58,796 bases of DNA from a virus (lineage: Duplodnaviria > Caudoviricetes), in the IMG/VR virus record IMGVR_UViG_3300042890_001480, positions 1-58,796 of that record. One strand, written 5' to 3'. Positions 1 to 6,202 of this stretch are shown in pieces. A program made the translations under genes and the position numbers. The notes under the pieces were generated by a model. The model did not search any database and had not been told where the DNA came from. It saw only the letters and a program-made list of their open reading frames with translations. Position 1 is the stretch's first letter. Every line of letters starts with the position of its first letter.

Positions 1-72
1 CTTGATACCGCCATGATTATATTCGAACAATAGTTCGTTATAGATTAAGTCTAGGTTAGACATGTTAGACAT
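1..72 (-). CDS. hypothetical protein, 5' part only (runs off window)
   Basis: ATG at 72 overlaps the upstream stop (TAATG); open MSNMSNLDLIYNELLFEYNHGGIK to the window edge. Confidence 0.55.
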   Translation of the reverse strand, partial: MSNMSNLDLIYNELLFEYNHGGIK

Positions 73-179
73 TAAGACACCTTCCAATTCTTAGCGATAC
101 AATTATCGCATATAGCAGGGATAGATGATTTAGATACCATAGCGGTATCATTACATGATATACATTTTTTATTTATCAT
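72..179 (-). CDS. 35-aa Cys4 zinc-ribbon-like peptide
   Basis: Manual translation MINKKCISCNDTAMVSKSSIPAICDNCIAKNWKVS; two CxxC; SD-like AGAAAGGA upstream; below ORF-track cutoff. Confidence 0.65.
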   Translation of the reverse strand: MINKKCISCNDTAMVSKSSIPAICDNCIAKNWKVS

Positions 180-211
180 TTTTAGTTATCCTTTCTAAGA
201 TACTTTCGTGG

Positions 212-267
212 AGAGCGGTTATTTGCTAGGCTCACCCTTTCGGGATTATTTGCTAGGCTCACGCTCT
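212..267 (-). promoter_or_regulatory. two-fold symmetric leader element (17-nt direct repeat inside a stem-loop)
   Basis: TTATTTGCTAGGCTCAC at 219-235 and 246-262; outer stem AGAGCG/CGCTCT; inner CCC-GAAA-GGG hairpin on the minus strand. Confidence 0.6.
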
Positions 268-375
268 AATTCTTTATTTAATTTGTTATACTATAATCCT
301 AACAGGGGGGACTGACATTTTGCCTATCACAAATCGGACATGTCGGACATTTTGTAAATTAGTTTCAGAAATTAG

Positions 376-391
376 GGTGATATACCTCACA
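376..391. promoter_or_regulatory. CRP/GlxR-like binding site
   Basis: GGTGA-TATACC-TCACA, 9/10 match to TGTGA-N6-TCACA, in a divergent intergenic region. Confidence 0.4.
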
Positions 392-482
392 TATGGTCGC
401 TCTATCTGGACAAATCGGACATTTTAAATATGTGTATCATACAAATTAAAATTATATTAACATTTTCATAAATCTAAATTAG

Positions 483-511
483 TAGTCAACTAGGATTATA
501 AATGTTATAAT
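483..511 (+). promoter_or_regulatory. promoter of tRNA pair
   Basis: TAGTCA-17nt-TATAAT with extended -10 TG (TGTTATAAT 503-511), just upstream of tRNA-Asn. Confidence 0.6.
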
Positions 512-519
512 AAATAAAT

Positions 520-592
520 TGGAGATTAGCTCAGCAGGCAGAGCGGGAAGCTGTTAACTTCTAGGTCCTAGGTTCGAATCCTAGATCTCCAG
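520..592 (+). tRNA. tRNA-Asn(GTT)
   Basis: Acceptor TGGAGAT/ATCTCCA, D stem GCTC/GAGC, anticodon loop CTGTTAA, T loop TTCGAAT; U1-A72 and G73 as typical for Asn; CCA not encoded. Confidence 0.93.
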
Positions 593-603
593 CTATTACA
601 TTT

Positions 604-674
604 GCGAATATTGCATAGTGGTAGTGCGTAACCTTGCCAAGGTTAATGTGAGAGTTCGATTCTCTCTATTCGCT
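604..674 (+). tRNA. tRNA-Gly(GCC)
   Basis: Acceptor GCGAATA/TATTCGC, anticodon arm TAACC-TTGCCAA-GGTTA, T arm GAGAG-TTCGATT-CTCTC, U73; CCA not encoded. Confidence 0.93.
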
Positions 675-677
675 CTC

Positions 678-707
678 TTGACCTAACAAAATCTATTATG
701 CTACAAT
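678..707 (+). promoter_or_regulatory. sigma70/sigA-type promoter
   Basis: TTGACC-18nt-TACAAT with extended -10 (TGcTACAAT); predicted +1 near 714. Confidence 0.7.
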
Positions 708-713
708 TCTAAC

Positions 714-913
714 CTTGGATAGTTTTCGGAGATAATATCAAGGGGTTAAACTCCAAGTGCGACAATGACGGAAGTGTTATTAGTCTTGGCTTATATATCC
801 AGTATAAGTTCAACCGATGAATTGCGGGTTTACTACCTTTAGACAATTTCGGGGGATCCTTAAAAGATTTAAGGGGTGTAGGGGTTGTATGCTCTAAATC
901 TGGAAGTATCCAA
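714..913 (+). ncRNA. candidate ~200-nt structured ncRNA, family unknown
   Basis: Begins at predicted +1; 715-730 pairs with 899-913 (15 bp, one bulge, 3 G-U); several internal hairpins; GC-richer than flanks; no plus-strand ORF in the track. Confidence 0.6.
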
Positions 914-977
914 TAAAAAGAAAATATAAGATATATACTTAAAAATAAAAATTCTATTAACATTTAATATCATCTAA

Positions 978-999
978 TATTCTAGTCAACTAAGATATA
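978..999 (+). repeat. 22-bp direct repeat, copy upstream of HNH gene
   Basis: TATTCTAGTCAACTAAGATATA, 21/22 identical to 1329-1350; 14-nt partial copy at 483-496. Confidence 0.8.
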
Positions 1000-1036
1000 T
1001 ATCCAGATTATAATAATTAAAAGATATACTTAGTCT

Positions 1037-1324
1037 ATGAAGTCGGATAAGACGACTGATCGAAAACATAAAGCTCATCTGATAAAGTATATTCAGGAGT
1101 TAAAATCTTCTACTCCTTGCTTAGATTGTAAAATATCCTATCCATACTATGTTATGGACTTTGACCATGTTAGAGGAACTAAGCAAGCAAATGTGGCGGA
1201 ATTGATTAATACCTTATCCAAGAAGAAAATAGATCTAGAGATAGCTAAATGTGAGATAGTATGTTCTAATTGTCATCGTATTAGAACTCATCATAGGAAA
1301 ATTAAGAAAAAGGATAAATCTTAG
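1037..1324 (+). CDS. small HNH endonuclease
   Basis: CxxC (CLDC), DFDH, CxxC+H (CSNCHRIRT) zinc-binding HNH pattern; TATACT 6 nt before ATG (leaderless). Confidence 0.85.
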   Translation: MKSDKTTDRKHKAHLIKYIQELKSSTPCLDCKISYPYYVMDFDHVRGTKQANVAELINTLSKKKIDLEIAKCEIVCSNCHRIRTHHRKIKKKDKS

Positions 1325-1328
1325 TATT

Positions 1329-1350
1329 TATTCTAGTCAACTAGGATATA
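1329..1350 (+). repeat. 22-bp direct repeat, copy downstream of HNH gene
   Basis: TATTCTAGTCAACTAGGATATA with inverted core CTAGT-CA-ACTAG. Confidence 0.8.
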
Positions 1351-1418
1351 GATAGTACTATTAGCAAATAATAGGCTATAGAGATTATAGCAATTGAAAT
1401 CATTATCCTAGATATCAT
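1341..1418 (-). CDS. 25-aa single-TM peptide
   Basis: MISRIMISIAIISIAYYLLIVLSIS; ATG 1 nt after the stop of 1420..1740. Confidence 0.4.
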   Translation of the reverse strand: MISRIMISIAIISIAYYLLIVLSIS

Positions 1419-1419
1419 A

Positions 1420-1740
1420 TTAACTCTTATAAACAATAAATGGATATGTATTTAGGGCGGGTAGACGAAGTCTCTTTGCTAATGTATTATATTGGCTAAC
1501 TAGATTCTCTATGTTAGAGTTAGCTTTAGCCAAATCATACTCGTGTGCAGCTCTAGAATGAGTTAAATCTGTAGATCCTTTGATCATAATGTCAGAGGTA
1601 TATTTAATACAATACTGAGCGGAGGACAATGAAGTCTTTCTTGCGTACTGCAACTCATCATTAATAATAACTAAGCTCAATCCCATAAGCATGATTATTG
1701 CAGCTAGTGCTAGGTTTAATTTATTATATTTATTTTTCAT
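1420..1740 (-). CDS. membrane-anchored hypothetical protein
   Basis: Basic N-terminus, hydrophobic helix, then helical region; dedicated promoter just upstream. Confidence 0.7.
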   Translation of the reverse strand: MKNKYNKLNLALAAIIMLMGLSLVIINDELQYARKTSLSSAQYCIKYTSDIMIKGSTDLTHSRAAHEYDLAKANSNIENLVSQYNTLAKRLRLPALNTYPFIVYKS

Positions 1741-1749
1741 CCTGTATAT

Positions 1750-1778
1750 AGTATATTATTTATATTGGACAAAGTCAA
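1750..1778 (-). promoter_or_regulatory. sigA-type promoter
   Basis: TTGACT-17nt-TATACT, 9 nt before ATG at 1740. Confidence 0.7.
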
Positions 1779-1969
1779 AGGATTTCTTCCCCTACCCCGC
1801 TTTTTCTAAAATAGCCCATATCGGCCTTCTAAGGCCCTTATGGCAAATGTTTAGGGATAGATGGTGGGTTATATGTGGAATGTGGGGAAAGGGGTCTCTA
1901 TCTCGCCGAAGCACTTTTTTCGCACTTTATTTTTTTCGCAATGCACTGTATTTAAAATATGTGTCTAAT

Positions 1970-2005
1970 AAACACAAAACCCAATCAGAGGCGGATCCGA
2001 TTGGG
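1970..2005 (-). terminator. intrinsic terminator
   Basis: CCCAATCGGA-TCCGCC-TCTGATTGGG followed by TTTTGTGTTT. Confidence 0.75.
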
Positions 2006-2063
2006 CAGTGCTAGTTCTTGCGAACTAAGTATGGGGAACATTGTGGGATGCTACGACCCATAC
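1970..2063 (-). ncRNA. candidate ~94-nt three-hairpin sRNA
   Basis: Consensus promoter puts +1 at G2063; stems GUAUGGG/CCCAUAC, UAGUUC-GCAA-GAACUA, then terminator hairpin and U-tract. Confidence 0.7.
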
Positions 2064-2069
2064 GTAATC

Positions 2070-2098
2070 ATTATAAAATACTTATTTTTCTAAGTCAA
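2070..2098 (-). promoter_or_regulatory. near-consensus sigA promoter of the sRNA
   Basis: TTGACT-17nt-TATAAT overlapping the 3' end of ORF 2082..2327. Confidence 0.75.
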
Positions 2099-2327
2099 GG
2101 ATATCTTGAACAAATTCTGTATCAGATTCATCAGAACCTTCTTGGGGTGTAAATGAAGGGGAGGGTCCAAGTAGGTAACCTTCTTCATGGTACTTAATCA
2201 TTTTTTCAGTTTTTTCAGGATCTACCTTATTAGCCATAATGGTTAATATGTCATAAATTCTATGAAGCATAATGTAATTAACCATAGGTAGGTTATCTTC
2301 TAAGTTTTGAGATTGTTGATCAGACAT
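2082..2327 (-). CDS. hypothetical protein
   Basis: 81 aa, overlaps upstream ORF by 8 nt, acidic tail. Confidence 0.75.
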   Translation of the reverse strand: MSDQQSQNLEDNLPMVNYIMLHRIYDILTIMANKVDPEKTEKMIKYHEEGYLLGPSPSFTPQEGSDESDTEFVQDILDLEK

Positions 2328-2538
2328 TTTCTGATACCTTTATTTTTTCTAGGATATCTTCATAGAACTTAATTCCTATGAAATTTTGATAATTACAGGA
2401 CAAACAATATAGAAATTCTTTATCATCTAAAGTTAGATTAGGCATCAGAAGGCCCTGATCCATTGGACATTCAAGTCTAGGAACAAGGCCCTCTTCTGAC
2501 AAAGCTATATATCTAGATACGTTCTGTATCTTTCCCAA
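2320..2538 (-). CDS. small zinc-ribbon-like protein
   Basis: CPMD...CLSC; TTG start with SD AAGGAG. Confidence 0.7.
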   Translation of the reverse strand: MGKIQNVSRYIALSEEGLVPRLECPMDQGLLMPNLTLDDKEFLYCLSCNYQNFIGIKFYEDILEKIKVSENV

Positions 2539-2547
2539 TATTGCTCC

Positions 2548-3108
2548 TTATGATTCTGGAAACTCTCCTACGAGAGCTTTGGCCTTGCCCGTTGAGGCAG
2601 ACCATGCTGACCAGTCTTTTCCGCCTTTGGTCATATAGTACGTTATCTCTGCGTTTGTTACTGGATCAAATAATTCCTTATTTGAAACTAAATTGAACTT
2701 TTCTTTTCTTGCTATACCAAGTTCCCCTAGCATGTTGATTTGAAAAATTCCGTAAGATTTATCGCCAGTTGATTTGTTGTCGTTTAGAGCAAGTGGTCTC
2801 CCATTGGACTCTATTCTAGCAACAGACCAAGCTGTTTTTAAAGCAGTTCCTTCAAATCCTACAGCCCATAATAAATCTTTTAAATCTTCGTCTGTAAGCA
2901 TTTCTGAACTCTTATAAGTATCATTGCTGAACTTATTTATTATTTCTCTTTTTAGTTGTTTTTCGGTTTTTTGTACCACTTCTGGTACAGTTGTTAATGC
3001 TTGAGTTACAGTTGGTCCAGGCTGGACGGAAAATAAGAATAATGTTATCATTCCTATGTACGTCCAATTATGGGCAACATCGCTCAAACGTTGTTTGATT
3101 CTCTCCAT
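2548..3108 (-). CDS. lysozyme-like/lytic transglycosylase with N-terminal TM or signal segment
   Basis: Catalytic IES, YGIFQIN, FDPVTNA, GKDWSAW motifs; SD AAGGAGG spacing favours ATG 3108 over 3114. Confidence 0.85.
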   Translation of the reverse strand: MERIKQRLSDVAHNWTYIGMITLFLFSVQPGPTVTQALTTVPEVVQKTEKQLKREIINKFSNDTYKSSEMLTDEDLKDLLWAVGFEGTALKTAWSVARIESNGRPLALNDNKSTGDKSYGIFQINMLGELGIARKEKFNLVSNKELFDPVTNAEITYYMTKGGKDWSAWSASTGKAKALVGEFPES

Positions 3109-3141
3109 TGGCATTTCCTCCTTTAGAGATAACGAACTATA

Positions 3142-3171
3142 ATAGTAGCATTAACTAGCAAAGCGTGTCAA
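3142..3171 (-). promoter_or_regulatory. sigA promoter of transglycosylase operon
   Basis: TTGACA-18nt-TACTAT with extended TG; -35 overlaps inverted repeat GTCAAC-CCA-GTTGAC. Confidence 0.65.
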
Positions 3172-3193
3172 CCCAGTTGACCAGAAAGAATTA

Positions 3194-4183
3194 ATGAATA
3201 TTTCATTTTCAACACCAACTGTTAACATAAAAGGTGAAAATGGATATGGCTATGCGGGAAGAAATATAGTTCATTCATTAAATTCATTAGGACATTTTGT
3301 CCCATTTCAAGATCCTAAATCTTTAGTTCAATTAAATTTTTCACAACCAGATCTTTTTAAATTACACAGGAAACAATATCAAATTGGATATACTCCATGG
3401 GAGTCAACAGTTATTCCAAAAAGATGGCACGAGAACATAAGACATTGCGATGAGTTTTGGACAACATCGGACTGGTGTGCAAATGTATTTGATGATAATG
3501 GATTTAGCAATATCAAAGTATTCCCGCATGGGATAGATCCAATGTGGACTCCTAAAAAAAGAGAACAAAAAGAGACTTTAAAGTTTTTACACATAGGAGA
3601 ACCATCTTCAAGAAAAGGTGGGCAAATAGCAGTAGATGCATTTTTACAACTATTTGGAAATAAACCAGGATACTCTTTAACAATAAAAGCATTTAACTAT
3701 AGCACTGTTAGGGTATTTAATAATTATATAGATAAAAATATTATAGGCCTGCCCCATGAAATGTATAACAATGTGTTTTTAAATAATTCTGTATTAAATG
3801 ACGAAGAGCTTGTTAGACTTTATCATGATCATGATGTTTTAATTTATCCTAGTTATGGAGAAGGTTTTGGGTTTATCCCGCTTCAAGCTCTAGCAACAGG
3901 AATGCCTACAATATCTACATTCGATTGGGCACAATATAAAAAATATATTGGTCCGCTAAAATTAAAATCAGAATTAATAGATTCTCCCTGGGACTATATG
4001 CACGAAGGCAAAGTCTATGAGCCAGACTATCAACACTTACTTGAGCTTATGAGAGATGTAAGTTTAAATTTTAAAGCATATTCATCTTATTATTACACTC
4101 AGTCAACTAAAATTCATGAAGAATATAATTGGTTGCGGTTGACTAATAATGCGTTTGACCATATTTTTAAAAAATTCTCATAA
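3194..4183 (+). CDS. GT-B glycosyltransferase (GT4-like)
   Basis: PHGID, RKG, YPSYGEGFGFIPLQALATGMP motifs. Confidence 0.88.
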   Translation: MNISFSTPTVNIKGENGYGYAGRNIVHSLNSLGHFVPFQDPKSLVQLNFSQPDLFKLHRKQYQIGYTPWESTVIPKRWHENIRHCDEFWTTSDWCANVFDDNGFSNIKVFPHGIDPMWTPKKREQKETLKFLHIGEPSSRKGGQIAVDAFLQLFGNKPGYSLTIKAFNYSTVRVFNNYIDKNIIGLPHEMYNNVFLNNSVLNDEELVRLYHDHDVLIYPSYGEGFGFIPLQALATGMPTISTFDWAQYKKYIGPLKLKSELIDSPWDYMHEGKVYEPDYQHLLELMRDVSLNFKAYSSYYYTQSTKIHEEYNWLRLTNNAFDHIFKKFS

Positions 4184-4267
4184 TCTCTTTCCATTATAAA
4201 TAAAGTTTGATACACTTATACTTCATTAAAAAAACAATCAAGCCGCTGGGCGGAGAAAAAGGTCTAT

Positions 4268-6202
4268 ATGTCAACAGTTATTGAAAACCCATATGAAAAT
4301 TTTATTGCATTGTCTCGTTACGCAAGGTGGATTCCAGAAGATAATCGCAGAGAAACTTGGGGAGAAACAGTAGATCGTTATTTTACTTTTATGCTTGATC
4401 ATTTATTTAAAGAGTATTCTTATGAACCATCAAGCAAATTAATCCAGGAATTAAAAGAAGCAGTTCTTAATAGAAATGTTATGCCCTCAATGAGAGCGGT
4501 AATGACATCTGGTGCAGCATTAGAAAGAGATCATGTCGCAGGATACAACTGTTCTTTTATTCCAGTAGATTCACCAAGATCATTTGATGAAACAATGTAT
4601 ATTCTTATGTGTGGAACTGGAGTAGGATTTTCTGTAGAGTATAAGTATATTAATAAACTTCCTTCCGTTCCAGAATCTTTAGAAAAATCAACAACAGTTA
4701 TTTCTGTAGAGGATTCAAAACAGGGTTGGGCAAAAGCATATCGTGAATTACTAGCGCTACTTTGGTCTGGACAAATTCCAGCAATTGATGTAACTAAACT
4801 TAGGCCAGCAGGAGCAAGACTTAAAACTATGGGTGGAAGATCTTCTGGTCCACAACCACTTATTAATCTTTTTGATTTTACAATTAAAATATTTAAAAAC
4901 TCAGTTGGAAGAAATTTAAAGCCAATTGAATGCCACGACATTATGTGTAAAATTGGAGAAGTTGTTGTAGTTGGCGGAGTCCGTAGATCTGCAATGATTT
5001 CACTATCTAACATTAATGACATTGAAATGGCGGCAGCTAAATCAGGAAATTGGTGGGAAAATAGTCCACAGAGAGCGTTATCAAATAACTCAGTTGCTTA
5101 TTCTAGAAAACCAGAAATGGCACAATTTATCACAGAATGGAAAAATCTTTATGACTCAAAATCTGGAGAGCGTGGAATCTACAATGTTGCCGCTGCTCAA
5201 GCGCAAGCAGCTAAATATGGAAGACGGGATCCTGAAATACACTATGGAACAAACCCTTGTTCGGAAATTATTTTGCGTCCTTATCAGTTTTGTAATCTTT
5301 CAGAAGTCGTATTACGTGAAAAAGATACAGTTGAGGATGTCGAGAATAAAGTAAGACTTGCTACTATTTTAGGAACATGGCAATCAACATTAACAGACTT
5401 TAAATATCTACGTAAAATTTGGAAAGATAATACAGAAGAAGAAAGACTATTAGGGGTATCTCTAACTGGTCAATTTGGACACAAGTTCTTCTCTGGAAAA
5501 CAAGGCCTAGATAAACTAGAATCTACACTAGTATCTCTTCGTGAGCAGGCAAGAAAAACAAATAAAGAAGAGGCTAAAAAAATTGGCATACAGGAGTCTG
5601 CGGCAATTACCTGTGTAAAGCCTTCGGGAACAGTATCTCAATTAGTAGGGGTTTCTTCAGGAATGCACCCATGGCACTCTAGGTATTATATTCGTACGGT
5701 TCGTGGCTCTAAAGGAGATCCAATTTCTACATTTTTAAAAGAGGTTGGAATACCAGTAGAAGATGATGTTATGAAACCAACAGATACTTATGTATTTTCA
5801 TTTCCTATAAAAGCACCAGAAGATGCAATTGTAAGAAACGACCTAACGGCTATTGATCACCTAAACACTTGGCTAGTATATCAAAGAGCATGGTGTGAGC
5901 ATAAGCCATCAATTACAGTTTCAGTAAAAGAAGATGAGTGGATGGAAGTTGGGGCATGGGTATATAAAAACTTTGATGAAGTTTCTGGTATTTCGTTTTT
6001 GCCGTCTTCAGATCACTCATACAAACAAGCACCATATCAGGAAGTAACAAAAGAGGAATACGAAGACTTGTTATCTAAGATGCCAAGATCTATTCGTTGG
6101 GAAGATTTATCTTTTTATGAAACTGAAGATGGAACATCTACAAATGCTACGTTGGCCTGTAGTTCAGACGGCAATTGTGAGCTTGTTGATATTTCTGCTT
6201 AA
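4268..6202 (+). CDS. nrdJ: class II (adenosylcobalamin-dependent) ribonucleotide reductase
   Basis: YNC, NPCSEI, TCVKPSGTVSQL, C-terminal CSSDGNC; no nrdB adjacent. Confidence 0.9.
   Translation: MSTVIENPYENFIALSRYARWIPEDNRRETWGETVDRYFTFMLDHLFKEYSYEPSSKLIQELKEAVLNRNVMPSMRAVMTSGAALERDHVAGYNCSFIPVDSPRSFDETMYILMCGTGVGFSVEYKYINKLPSVPESLEKSTTVISVEDSKQGWAKAYRELLALLWSGQIPAIDVTKLRPAGARLKTMGGRSSGPQPLINLFDFTIKIFKNSVGRNLKPIECHDIMCKIGEVVVVGGVRRSAMISLSNINDIEMAAAKSGNWWENSPQRALSNNSVAYSRKPEMAQFITEWKNLYDSKSGERGIYNVAAAQAQAAKYGRRDPEIHYGTNPCSEIILRPYQFCNLSEVVLREKDTVEDVENKVRLATILGTWQSTLTDFKYLRKIWKDNTEEERLLGVSLTGQFGHKFFSGKQGLDKLESTLVSLREQARKTNKEEAKKIGIQESAAITCVKPSGTVSQLVGVSSGMHPWHSRYYIRTVRGSKGDPISTFLKEVGIPVEDDVMKPTDTYVFSFPIKAPEDAIVRNDLTAIDHLNTWLVYQRAWCEHKPSITVSVKEDEWMEVGAWVYKNFDEVSGISFLPSSDHSYKQAPYQEVTKEEYEDLLSKMPRSIRWEDLSFYETEDGTSTNATLACSSDGNCELVDISA

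Follow-up and report, generated by a model that had tools for sequence, protein, structure and literature searches.

Does the short interval at positions 1970 to 2098 of an uncultured phage genome fragment hold a small RNA (sRNA) gene of its own, and, if it does, which part of the RNA does the work? The fragment, called the window here, is the whole of the IMG/VR virus record IMGVR_UViG_3300042890_001480 (58,796 bases, estimated to be 49% complete, about 36% GC). The original prediction, made from the letters of the window alone, had placed a stand-alone structured sRNA gene with C-rich loops at this site. Our analysis indicates that the locus is very probably an independent small-RNA gene of a lytic-type siphophage. 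To judge from the sequences compared, the RNA belongs to a family that is real, new and widespread among uncultured aquatic phage contigs, well over a hundred of them, and the emphasis should be put on an invariant hexaloop and on the junction of the first hairpin, not on C-rich loops or a palindrome.

Promoter, fold and terminator of the RNA

The gene is read from the minus strand (Table 1). Between positions 2098 and 2070, TTGACT and TATAAT were found 17 nucleotides (nt) apart, as predicted. The two hexamers agree with the consensus at 11 of 12 positions, and the site ranks first among the 31 promoter-like sites in bases 1-5000. Sigma-70/sigma-A promoters consist of hexamers 16-18 nt apart with a purine start about 7 nt farther on, and the sequence has each of these features. 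The purine is G2063, which lies 7 nt downstream of the -10 hexamer and is the first base of hairpin 1. A start placed from the promoter falls exactly on the first stem base, where the prediction had put it.

The promoter is conserved together with the RNA. Across 130 loci of the family, 122 carry TTGAC(T/A)-N17-(T/G)ANNNT upstream of the RNA, and the spacer measures 17 nt in all 122. Their -10 hexamer reads TACAAT in 68 cases, TATAAT in 23 and TATACT in 20, with other forms in the remaining 11. Of the 8 loci without a promoter, one matches by chance within a coding region, and in the others no -35 hexamer can be recognised. In 85 of 104 sequences, the base 7 positions past the -10 hexamer forms the first pair of the stem (GU 47, GC 29, AU 9).

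Folding of the 97-nt RNA (2063..1967) by RNAfold gave three hairpins with a free energy of -37.9 kcal/mol, and the loops CCCACA, GCAA and UCCGCC that had been described were reproduced. For 200 dinucleotide shuffles of the RNA the energy was -19.9 ± 2.9 kcal/mol (z = -6.21 for the sRNA), and not one shuffle folded as well. Independently of this fold, a terminator scan picked positions 2006..1979, a hairpin of 11 pairs, 5 of them G-C, followed by the U tract TTTGTGTTTA. A G+C-rich hairpin with an adjoining U tract constitutes an intrinsic terminator, and the U tract is kept in the alignment of the family. All the elements listed in the prediction are present, and its anatomy of the locus is correct to the base.

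Retrieval of the family and its neighbours

The sRNA gene closes a minus-strand operon that encodes an SLT_3 lysozyme-like protein of 188 amino acids (aa), a 72-aa protein and an acidic 81-aa protein. A search with the 81-aa protein and nothing else showed that more than 596 viral contigs encode a relative; the best 80 loci were fetched, and their 81-aa proteins are 63-100% identical. A covariance model (R1), built later from the collected sequences, was then run on these 80 protein-retrieved loci. It gave full-length matches of 80-99 bits directly 3′ of the 81-aa open reading frame (ORF) in 66 of them. Among the other 14, one R1 match was cut by the end of the locus, five weaker matches lay about 2 kb farther on and eight loci gave none. 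These eight include one locus cut within hairpin 2, one that ends too early, three with the RNA beyond the end of the locus (on the same contig as locus L097) and three with the terminator hairpin only. In the window itself, R1 matches positions 1967-2064 with 88.4 bits.

Further members were obtained by scanning the viral collection for the 16-mer TCGGATCCGCCTCTGA, the apex of hairpin 3, which returned at least 119 further stretches. In 126 of the 131 deduplicated loci listed, a member of the 81-aa ORF family stands just upstream on the same strand, and each of the two genes preceding this ORF is present in 124 of the 131. The exact 16-mer also occurs in at least 120 stretches of bacterial and archaeal genomes, from unrelated and mostly high-GC taxa and at about the rate of chance; the whole sRNA is present in just 2 of the 120 listed. 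These two (L237 and L299) are a 24.9-kb contig in a metagenome-assembled genome labelled Saccharibacteria and a 5-kb contig in one labelled Bacteroidia. Both are probably mis-binned phage contigs, and since the labels contradict each other we draw no conclusion on the host from them. No match was obtained when positions 1700-2400 were compared by blastn with the phage GenBank collection. Homologues of the 81-aa ORF were found in 98 records of Streptomyces phages; in the Streptomyces phage Evy, the gap equivalent to the sRNA locus showed no R1 match, promoter or terminator.

Compensatory changes in the stems

The original prediction had named an alignment of homologues as a check for covariation, and strong compensatory change was observed. 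From a family with at least that many distinct sequences, 104 were aligned with MAFFT. Most of them had been gathered by the exact 16-mer, so that the apex and the upper five pairs of hairpin 3 are invariant by construction; the unbiased figure for conservation of the apex is that of the protein-retrieved set, in which 65 of 80 loci carry the exact 16 nt. RNAalifold recovered the basal stem of hairpin 1 (P1) and hairpin 3 from this alignment, and 10 of the 18 predicted pairs change on both sides. One pair, for example, is UA in 53 sequences, CG in 44 and UG in 6, and its neighbour is AU in 52, UA in 27 and GC in 23.

A second alignment was fitted to the model, for which 100 sources were searched and 97 matches at E <= 1e-5 were retained. 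Here 96.2% of 2171 pair cells are paired, and double-sided changes occur at 16 of the 23 pairs (309 cells). None of 500 shuffles reached any of the five measures, and sliding the partners by 1-3 columns lowered pairing to 32-46% (at most 45.8%). All 7 pairs of P1 vary on both sides, all 4 modelled pairs of hairpin 2 covary, and in hairpin 3 the lower stem covaries. Compensatory changes that keep the helices are the mark of a structured RNA. The proposal of a stand-alone structured sRNA gene in this phage is backed by the conservation of the promoter, by the start on the first stem base and by the covariation of the stems.

When the sequences were folded singly, 95 of 104 formed exactly three hairpins, and 5 of the other 9 are true two-hairpin forms that lack hairpin 2. 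The absence of hairpin 2 from these five variants indicates that it is dispensable. Its loop belongs to the GNRA type in 73 of the 95 three-hairpin folds, the rest being UUCG and others; such variable, mostly GNRA loops are expected of a structural spacer.

Family members are between 74 and about 104 nt long, and their lengths differ by amounts not divisible by three. Two plus-strand ORFs lie over the locus in the window (1691-2014 and 1959-2093), the first of which has no PHROG match. With no conserved gene on the opposite strand and with such length differences, the RNA does not qualify as the antisense RNA of an overlapping gene. A conserved G.U pair and occasional changes to G.U in the stems fit an RNA on the minus strand only.

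The constant parts: hexaloop and junction

The hexaloop UCCGCC of hairpin 3 is the same in every family member seen. The apical loop of hairpin 1, on the other hand, resembles CCCACA in one sub-family only and is GCAA, UUCG, UUUA, CCACCA or another sequence elsewhere. The prediction had treated C-rich loops, in the plural, as the functional feature; of these only UCCGCC is constant. It had also stressed the self-complementary CGGAUCCG, which is indeed present in the window at 1999-1992; in variants of the relatives this palindrome is lost, its place being taken by CGAAUCCG, UGGAUCCG or AGAGUCCG.

A second constant part was found in hairpin 1. Its junction consists of two G-C pairs, a bulged U with 0-2 further bases, and then the pairs G-C, A-U and G-C, which can be written GG-U(N)-G(A)G...CUC-CC.

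Members with a divergent hairpin 3 set the loop apart from its stem. At the top of the stem, UCGGA/UCUGA is replaced by UCGAA/UUUGA, CCGAA/UUUGG, ACGAA/UUUGU, UUGGA/UCCGA or UAGAG/CUCUA, and UCCGCC is kept wherever the stem top changes by compensation. One small lineage of three contigs has lost the promoter and hairpin 1, and its operon still ends in a terminator hairpin with the UCCGCC loop. A form of the RNA that derives from a 3′ untranslated region (UTR) may therefore exist as well. Because the loop is kept through compensation in the stem and through the loss of hairpin 1, the hexaloop is the best candidate for the working part of the RNA.

The relative L048 has, about 1 kb downstream of its complete sRNA gene (positions 4311-4359), a further, solitary hairpin 3 with an identical 16-nt apex; promoter, hairpin 1 and hairpin 2 are missing there, and the hairpin terminates a different ORF.

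A possible pairing mechanism and its candidate target

Chaperone-independent sRNAs of Gram-positive bacteria bind purine-rich ribosome-binding regions through C-rich loops on their terminator hairpins. That the phage RNA, too, acts by base-pairing through its loop is the reading we tentatively favour. Host RNA polymerase would start at G2063 from the near-consensus sigma-70/sigma-A promoter and would stop at hairpin 3, which would yield an abundant RNA of about 95 nt. The 5′ end of this sRNA would be locked in a stem, hairpin 2 would be a stable and usually GNRA-capped spacer, and the 3′ terminator hairpin would expose the invariant UCCGCC. As the effector, the hexaloop would pair with GGCGGA in another RNA.

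The window holds 38 plus-strand copies of GGCGGA. Thirty-four are in-frame Gly-Gly codons and 2 lie within ORFs in other frames; of the last 2, one is the antisense of the sRNA itself and one is intergenic, in the 5′ UTR of a class II ribonucleotide reductase (RNR) gene. The excess of GGCGGA as such was discarded as a clue to the target, since it is explained by the choice of codon pairs. In the plus-strand genes of the window, GGC-GGA occurs 34 times (12.7 expected) and GGT-GGA 35 times (19.8 expected), and the disfavoured pairs are GGA-GGA (15 against 37 expected), GGA-GGT (3 against 20) and GGA-GGC (2 against 13). The genes thus avoid GGA-GGN, and with it GGAGG, a bias that suggests strong use of Shine-Dalgarno sequences by the host. 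Given this avoidance and the kinship with Streptomyces phages, a Gram-positive host is plausible.

As a side observation, UCC-GCC can be read as two glycine anticodons side by side and is the exact complement of the favoured GGC-GGA codon pair. A tRNA-Gly gene (GCC or UCC) is among the tRNAs beside the sRNA in the window and in many relatives. The likeness of the hexaloop to glycine anticodons is probably a coincidence.

The site in the RNR leader is common among the relatives: of 35 distinct regions upstream of RNR, 32 contain GGCGGA. For comparison, 49 ORF clusters within 5 kb of the sRNA were inspected; GGCGGA is absent from 44 of the 48 non-RNR clusters, and in the remaining ones its frequency is at most 8 of 109. 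RNR leaders beside divergent sRNA variants also keep GGCGGA, and a lineage without the stand-alone sRNA lacks the block in the RNR UTR. The predicted contact between the loop and the RNR leader has 7 base pairs (bp), formed by the hexaloop and its 3′ closing base, with -13.1 kcal/mol. By this route, RGGCGGA directly upstream of the ribosome-binding site would be occupied, and the 7-bp contact would lower or time translation. Cofolding of the sRNA with the RNR leader did not show the loop contact, a pseudoknot-like contact lying outside that model. Complements of the hairpin 1 loop (CAUCCCAC) were also sought as a guide to targets, and none was found near start codons.

In relatives, the RNR leader block has the form CCGC-NNN-GCGG-AGAAAAGG and lies downstream of an extended -10 promoter. 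From its sequence, the block looks like a cis-regulatory element in its own right. In the window, the region of the RNR gene at 4206-4267 on the plus strand comprises an extended -10 promoter, TTTGATACACT, and a leader of about 45 nt.

Several points weigh against pairing as the mechanism, and against the RNR mRNA as its target. The complementarity of 6-7 nt is short. The RNR site was found post hoc among about 49 upstream sets, and by our own rough estimate a coincidence has a chance of about 5-20%. Three of the 35 RNR UTRs break the match (GUCGGA, GGCGAA and GGGCAG) and the sRNA loop is unchanged there. One of these UTRs keeps its own hairpin by a compensatory change (CUGCC/GGCAG), which speaks for selection on the UTR hairpin itself and not on pairing with the sRNA. 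The lineage without the UTR block keeps UCCGCC, so that RNR is not the sole reason for the conservation of the loop. In addition, hairpin 1 has a bulged junction whose very sequence is conserved, which is more reminiscent of a contact with a protein, or of a tertiary contact, than of a seed. Pairing targets were sought among phage sequences. Metatranscriptomes do not tip the balance. Two runs contained 4% of the sampled words; positions 1968-2037 and parts of the upstream ORF are touched there by contigs of relatives only (85-99% alike), and nothing was obtained from two further runs. As these contigs of relatives carry no ends, strand or level, they speak neither for nor against transcription. 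With all this considered, the class II RNR mRNA of the phage is a candidate target of the sRNA, but a doubtful one.

Alternative explanations

Somewhat unlikely, though a serious competitor to loop-mediated pairing, is a role as a protein decoy or scaffold. The hexaloop hairpin and the bulged-U junction would be recognised by an RNA-binding protein of the host or the phage (for instance a nuclease, a repressor of translation or a defence factor), which the abundant early RNA would titrate or organise. The conserved elements are of a kind that fits this role, being both structural and sequence-specific: the junction GG-U(N)-GAG/CUC-CC stands between covarying stems, and the stem below the hexaloop retains its G.U pair in most members. 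The apical loop of hairpin 1 and the whole of hairpin 2 vary freely, as spacers would. Conservation of the loop where the one candidate RNA target is absent is likewise accommodated, and the near-consensus promoter suggests a high copy number. However, the adjoining 81-aa protein is acidic and without an RNA-binding domain, and its homologue in Streptomyces phages, as examined in Evy, has no such RNA beside it.

It is unlikely, too, that the RNA is a counter-measure or take-over factor of a new type, an abundant early decoy that would trap a conserved RNA-binding factor, or a conserved RNA, of the host by means of the hexaloop and the bulged-U junction; in a sub-variant it would tune the B12-dependent RNR of the phage via GGCGGA. 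If true, a decoy function would explain why six loop bases are frozen amid drift across a widespread aquatic phage lineage.

Alternatively, hairpin 3 might be a cis-acting end structure only, that is, a bidirectional terminator and 3′ stabiliser for the operon and the convergent tRNA array, and the transcript might have no function. We consider this improbable. It is true that the A-rich 5′ flank and the U-rich 3′ flank can pair, and that in at least 17 loci, chosen for tRNA-like sequence after the tail, an opposite-strand tRNA array ends 0-5 nt from the tail of the sRNA; with convergent tRNAs, hairpin 3 and its flanks must be a two-way terminator there. The copy of hairpin 3 alone after another ORF in L048 also fits, as does the lineage of L057, which uses the UCCGCC hairpin as a plain operon terminator. 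But terminators do not need an invariant loop. Of 130 loci, 122 retain a promoter with fixed spacing and with the +1 at the first base of the stem, and the covariation of 7 out of 7 basal pairs of hairpin 1 is, like the conservation of the promoter, unexpected for a by-product.

A very improbable function is that of an origin-associated transcript, which would activate or prime replication beside iteron-like repeats, loosely like lambda oop. Repeats of AGTGC(A/G) and GCGAAAAAA and a widely conserved block of about 25-45 nt do occur at about 1900-1960 on the minus strand. The terminator, however, stands between the RNA and these repeats, and in many relatives the RNA is followed by tRNA genes and not by repeats. 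Scarcely credible, finally, is a regulated leader (a riboswitch, an attenuator or an N/Q-type antitermination site governing downstream read-through): a promoter, a structured RNA and a terminator do follow each other, with minus-strand ORFs of the window beyond them at 1740-1420 and 963-709, but the at least 17 loci with convergent tRNAs next nearly refute it, since with tRNAs abutting the terminator the sRNA cannot be a leader for downstream genes and read-through would be antisense, the downstream ORF of the window has a promoter-like site of its own at 1778-1750, and no alternative antiterminator pairing is conserved.

Comparison with known RNAs

The prediction had assigned the RNA to an unknown family and had named an Rfam search as a check; no Rfam family was matched by the sRNA in the window, at the locus or in relatives. 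Searching the whole window with Rfam 15 at the gathering score returned only the two tRNAs at 520-675, and the search of positions 1650-2200 at E <= 10 gave three noise matches, none of them meaningful on the strand of the sRNA. For 12 diverse family members, Rfam likewise returned tRNAs only. Thus none of the Rfam 15 families, 6C, RsaE/RoxS, Y RNA, phage pRNA and tRNA-like RNAs included, reaches its gathering score with this RNA. ARAGORN detected tRNA-Asn (520-593) and tRNA-Gly (604-675) as the only such genes of the window, and no tRNA or tmRNA at the sRNA locus. A superficial literature search, for the apex sequence and for surveys of structured RNAs in phages, revealed no description of this RNA, and the apex turned up only in papers on other subjects, in primers and the like. 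Mimicry of a T-arm or anticodon arm, a K-turn, a Y RNA, a CsrA sponge, a CRISPR-repeat mimic and mimicry of the 16S rRNA 3′ end were considered and dropped on inspection of the sequence.

The closest resemblance is to Gram-positive sRNAs such as 6C RNA of Actinobacteria, RsaE/RoxS and the 3′ domain of Staphylococcus aureus RNAIII. The phage RNA shares with them the plan of a small, independent gene that consists of a few hairpins, with a C-rich loop on that of the terminator; chaperone-independent pairing with purine-rich or G-rich sites near ribosome-binding sites is plausible here too. The phage RNA differs from them in that it matches no Rfam family, in that its one constant loop is UCCGCC and not a run of C or UCCC, and in that it is phage-encoded and has a conserved bulged junction in hairpin 1. 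A conserved, unpaired C-rich motif that pairs with the ribosome-binding region of a target, as proved by compensatory changes, would place the RNA in the class of C-rich-loop anti-Shine-Dalgarno sRNAs; what was observed in this regard is the conserved UCCGCC and one complementary site adjoining a ribosome-binding site, that of RNR, in 32 of 35 cases and with exceptions.

Phage RNAs offer partial parallels. Lambda oop is also a phage RNA of less than 100 nt with a constitutive promoter of its own and an intrinsic terminator, but it is antisense to an overlapping gene, whereas the present RNA has no conserved gene on the opposite strand. The species 1 and 2 RNAs of T4, whose function is little known, likewise lie beside a phage tRNA array; they are co-transcribed with the tRNAs and processed, while the sRNA described here converges with the tRNAs and has a promoter of its own. 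The leader of lambda PR′, which is used by Q antitermination, resembles it in combining a strong promoter, a short structured transcript and a strong terminator. Downstream of our sRNA, however, there are often convergent tRNAs, so that read-through would be without purpose.

To our knowledge, few phage-encoded small RNAs are understood, and almost none from uncultured environmental phages. The present one is compact, has unusually clean comparative support and is a good candidate for a new Rfam family. What stays constant in it is narrowly delimited, namely six loop bases and one junction; its synteny is fixed, and it comes with one candidate target that can be tested cheaply, the RNR leader. 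Through this RNA, early-gene regulation or host take-over could be approached in the large and abundant group of phages related to Stanwilliamsviridae.

Genomic context and further sequence elements

The window represents about half of a siphophage genome of about 120 kb, which is distantly related to the Stanwilliamsviridae of Streptomyces. Its structural genes include those for a portal protein, a prohead protease, a tape measure protein of 2387 aa and further siphovirus proteins, and it also encodes the class II RNR (assigned by Pfam) and a glycosyltransferase. The portal protein is about 57% identical to the portals of Streptomyces phages of about 130 kb that belong to Stanwilliamsviridae. 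The positions of the features discussed are collected in Table 1.

Table 1. Features of the sRNA locus and of the RNR leader, in window coordinates
Feature	Position	Strand	Remarks
sRNA promoter, -35 hexamer TTGACT	2093..2098	minus	inside the last codons of the upstream 81-aa ORF
sRNA promoter, -10 hexamer TATAAT	2070..2075	minus	17 nt beyond the -35 hexamer
Predicted sRNA, about 94-97 nt	1967..2063	minus	from G2063 (putative +1) to the end of the U tract; both ends predicted
Hairpin 1, 35 nt	2029..2063	minus	RNAfold and covariation
Basal stem P1 of hairpin 1, 7 bp	2063-2057 with 2035-2029	minus
5′ bulge UC of hairpin 1	2056-2055	minus	upper stem lies above the bulge
Apical loop CCCACA of hairpin 1	2047-2042	minus
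Hairpin 2, 6-bp stem, 16 nt	2012..2027	minus	GCAA tetraloop at 2021-2018
Hairpin 3, intrinsic terminator, 11-bp stem	1979..2006	minus	upper 5 bp include a G.U pair
Hexaloop UCCGCC of hairpin 3	1990..1995	minus
U-rich tail UUUUGUGUUUAUU	1967..1978	minus	able to pair with the A-rich linker 5′ of hairpin 3
Palindrome CGGAUCCG	1999-1992	minus
Acidic 81-aa ORF, phrog_12271	2082..2327	minus	upstream; constant left neighbour of the sRNA gene; no Pfam match
Candidate target block in the class II RNR 5′ UTR	4243..4262	plus	hairpin CCGC-UGG-GCGG, GGCGGA and purine-rich ribosome-binding region
GGCGGA complementary to the hexaloop (candidate site)	4249-4254	plus	RNR ATG at 4268, 13 nt downstream

An HNH endonuclease gene (1037-1324, plus strand) and two small minus-strand ORFs lie between the tRNA pair and the sRNA, at 709-1740 of the window. 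Compared with the at least 17 relatives in which the tRNA array abuts the RNA, these three genes are an insertion in the window. Between the sRNA and the next ORF, a second terminator-like hairpin was noticed on the minus strand (1805-1843), with GGCCUU-AG-AAGGCC inside a longer stem and then UAUUUU; it is common to close relatives only. An Rfam match at the same place, to a flavivirus stem-loop model, is noise (15.7 bits against a gathering score of 38.3).

Many relatives have (G)GTATAAT or GGTGTATAAT, sometimes in tandem, within about 10 nt of the U tract of the sRNA, so that the next promoter would share its upstream part with the 3′ arm of the terminator. Just downstream of the sRNA in the window, at about 1880-1960 on the minus strand, the motifs AGTGC(A/G) and GCGAAAAAA are repeated. 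The block around AGTGCGAAAAAAGTGCTTCGGCGAG in this region is 85-100% conserved in dozens of relatives, at a varying distance from the RNA. Repeats and block might represent iterons, an array of protein-binding sites or a promoter element peculiar to the phage. Finally, the divergent region upstream of the glycosyltransferase gene (about 3124-3193) contains the near-invariant block TAGAGATAACGAACTATAAT, followed by a GTCAAC...GTTGAC repeat, both of which are also present in relatives; together they are a candidate for a phage-specific promoter or operator.

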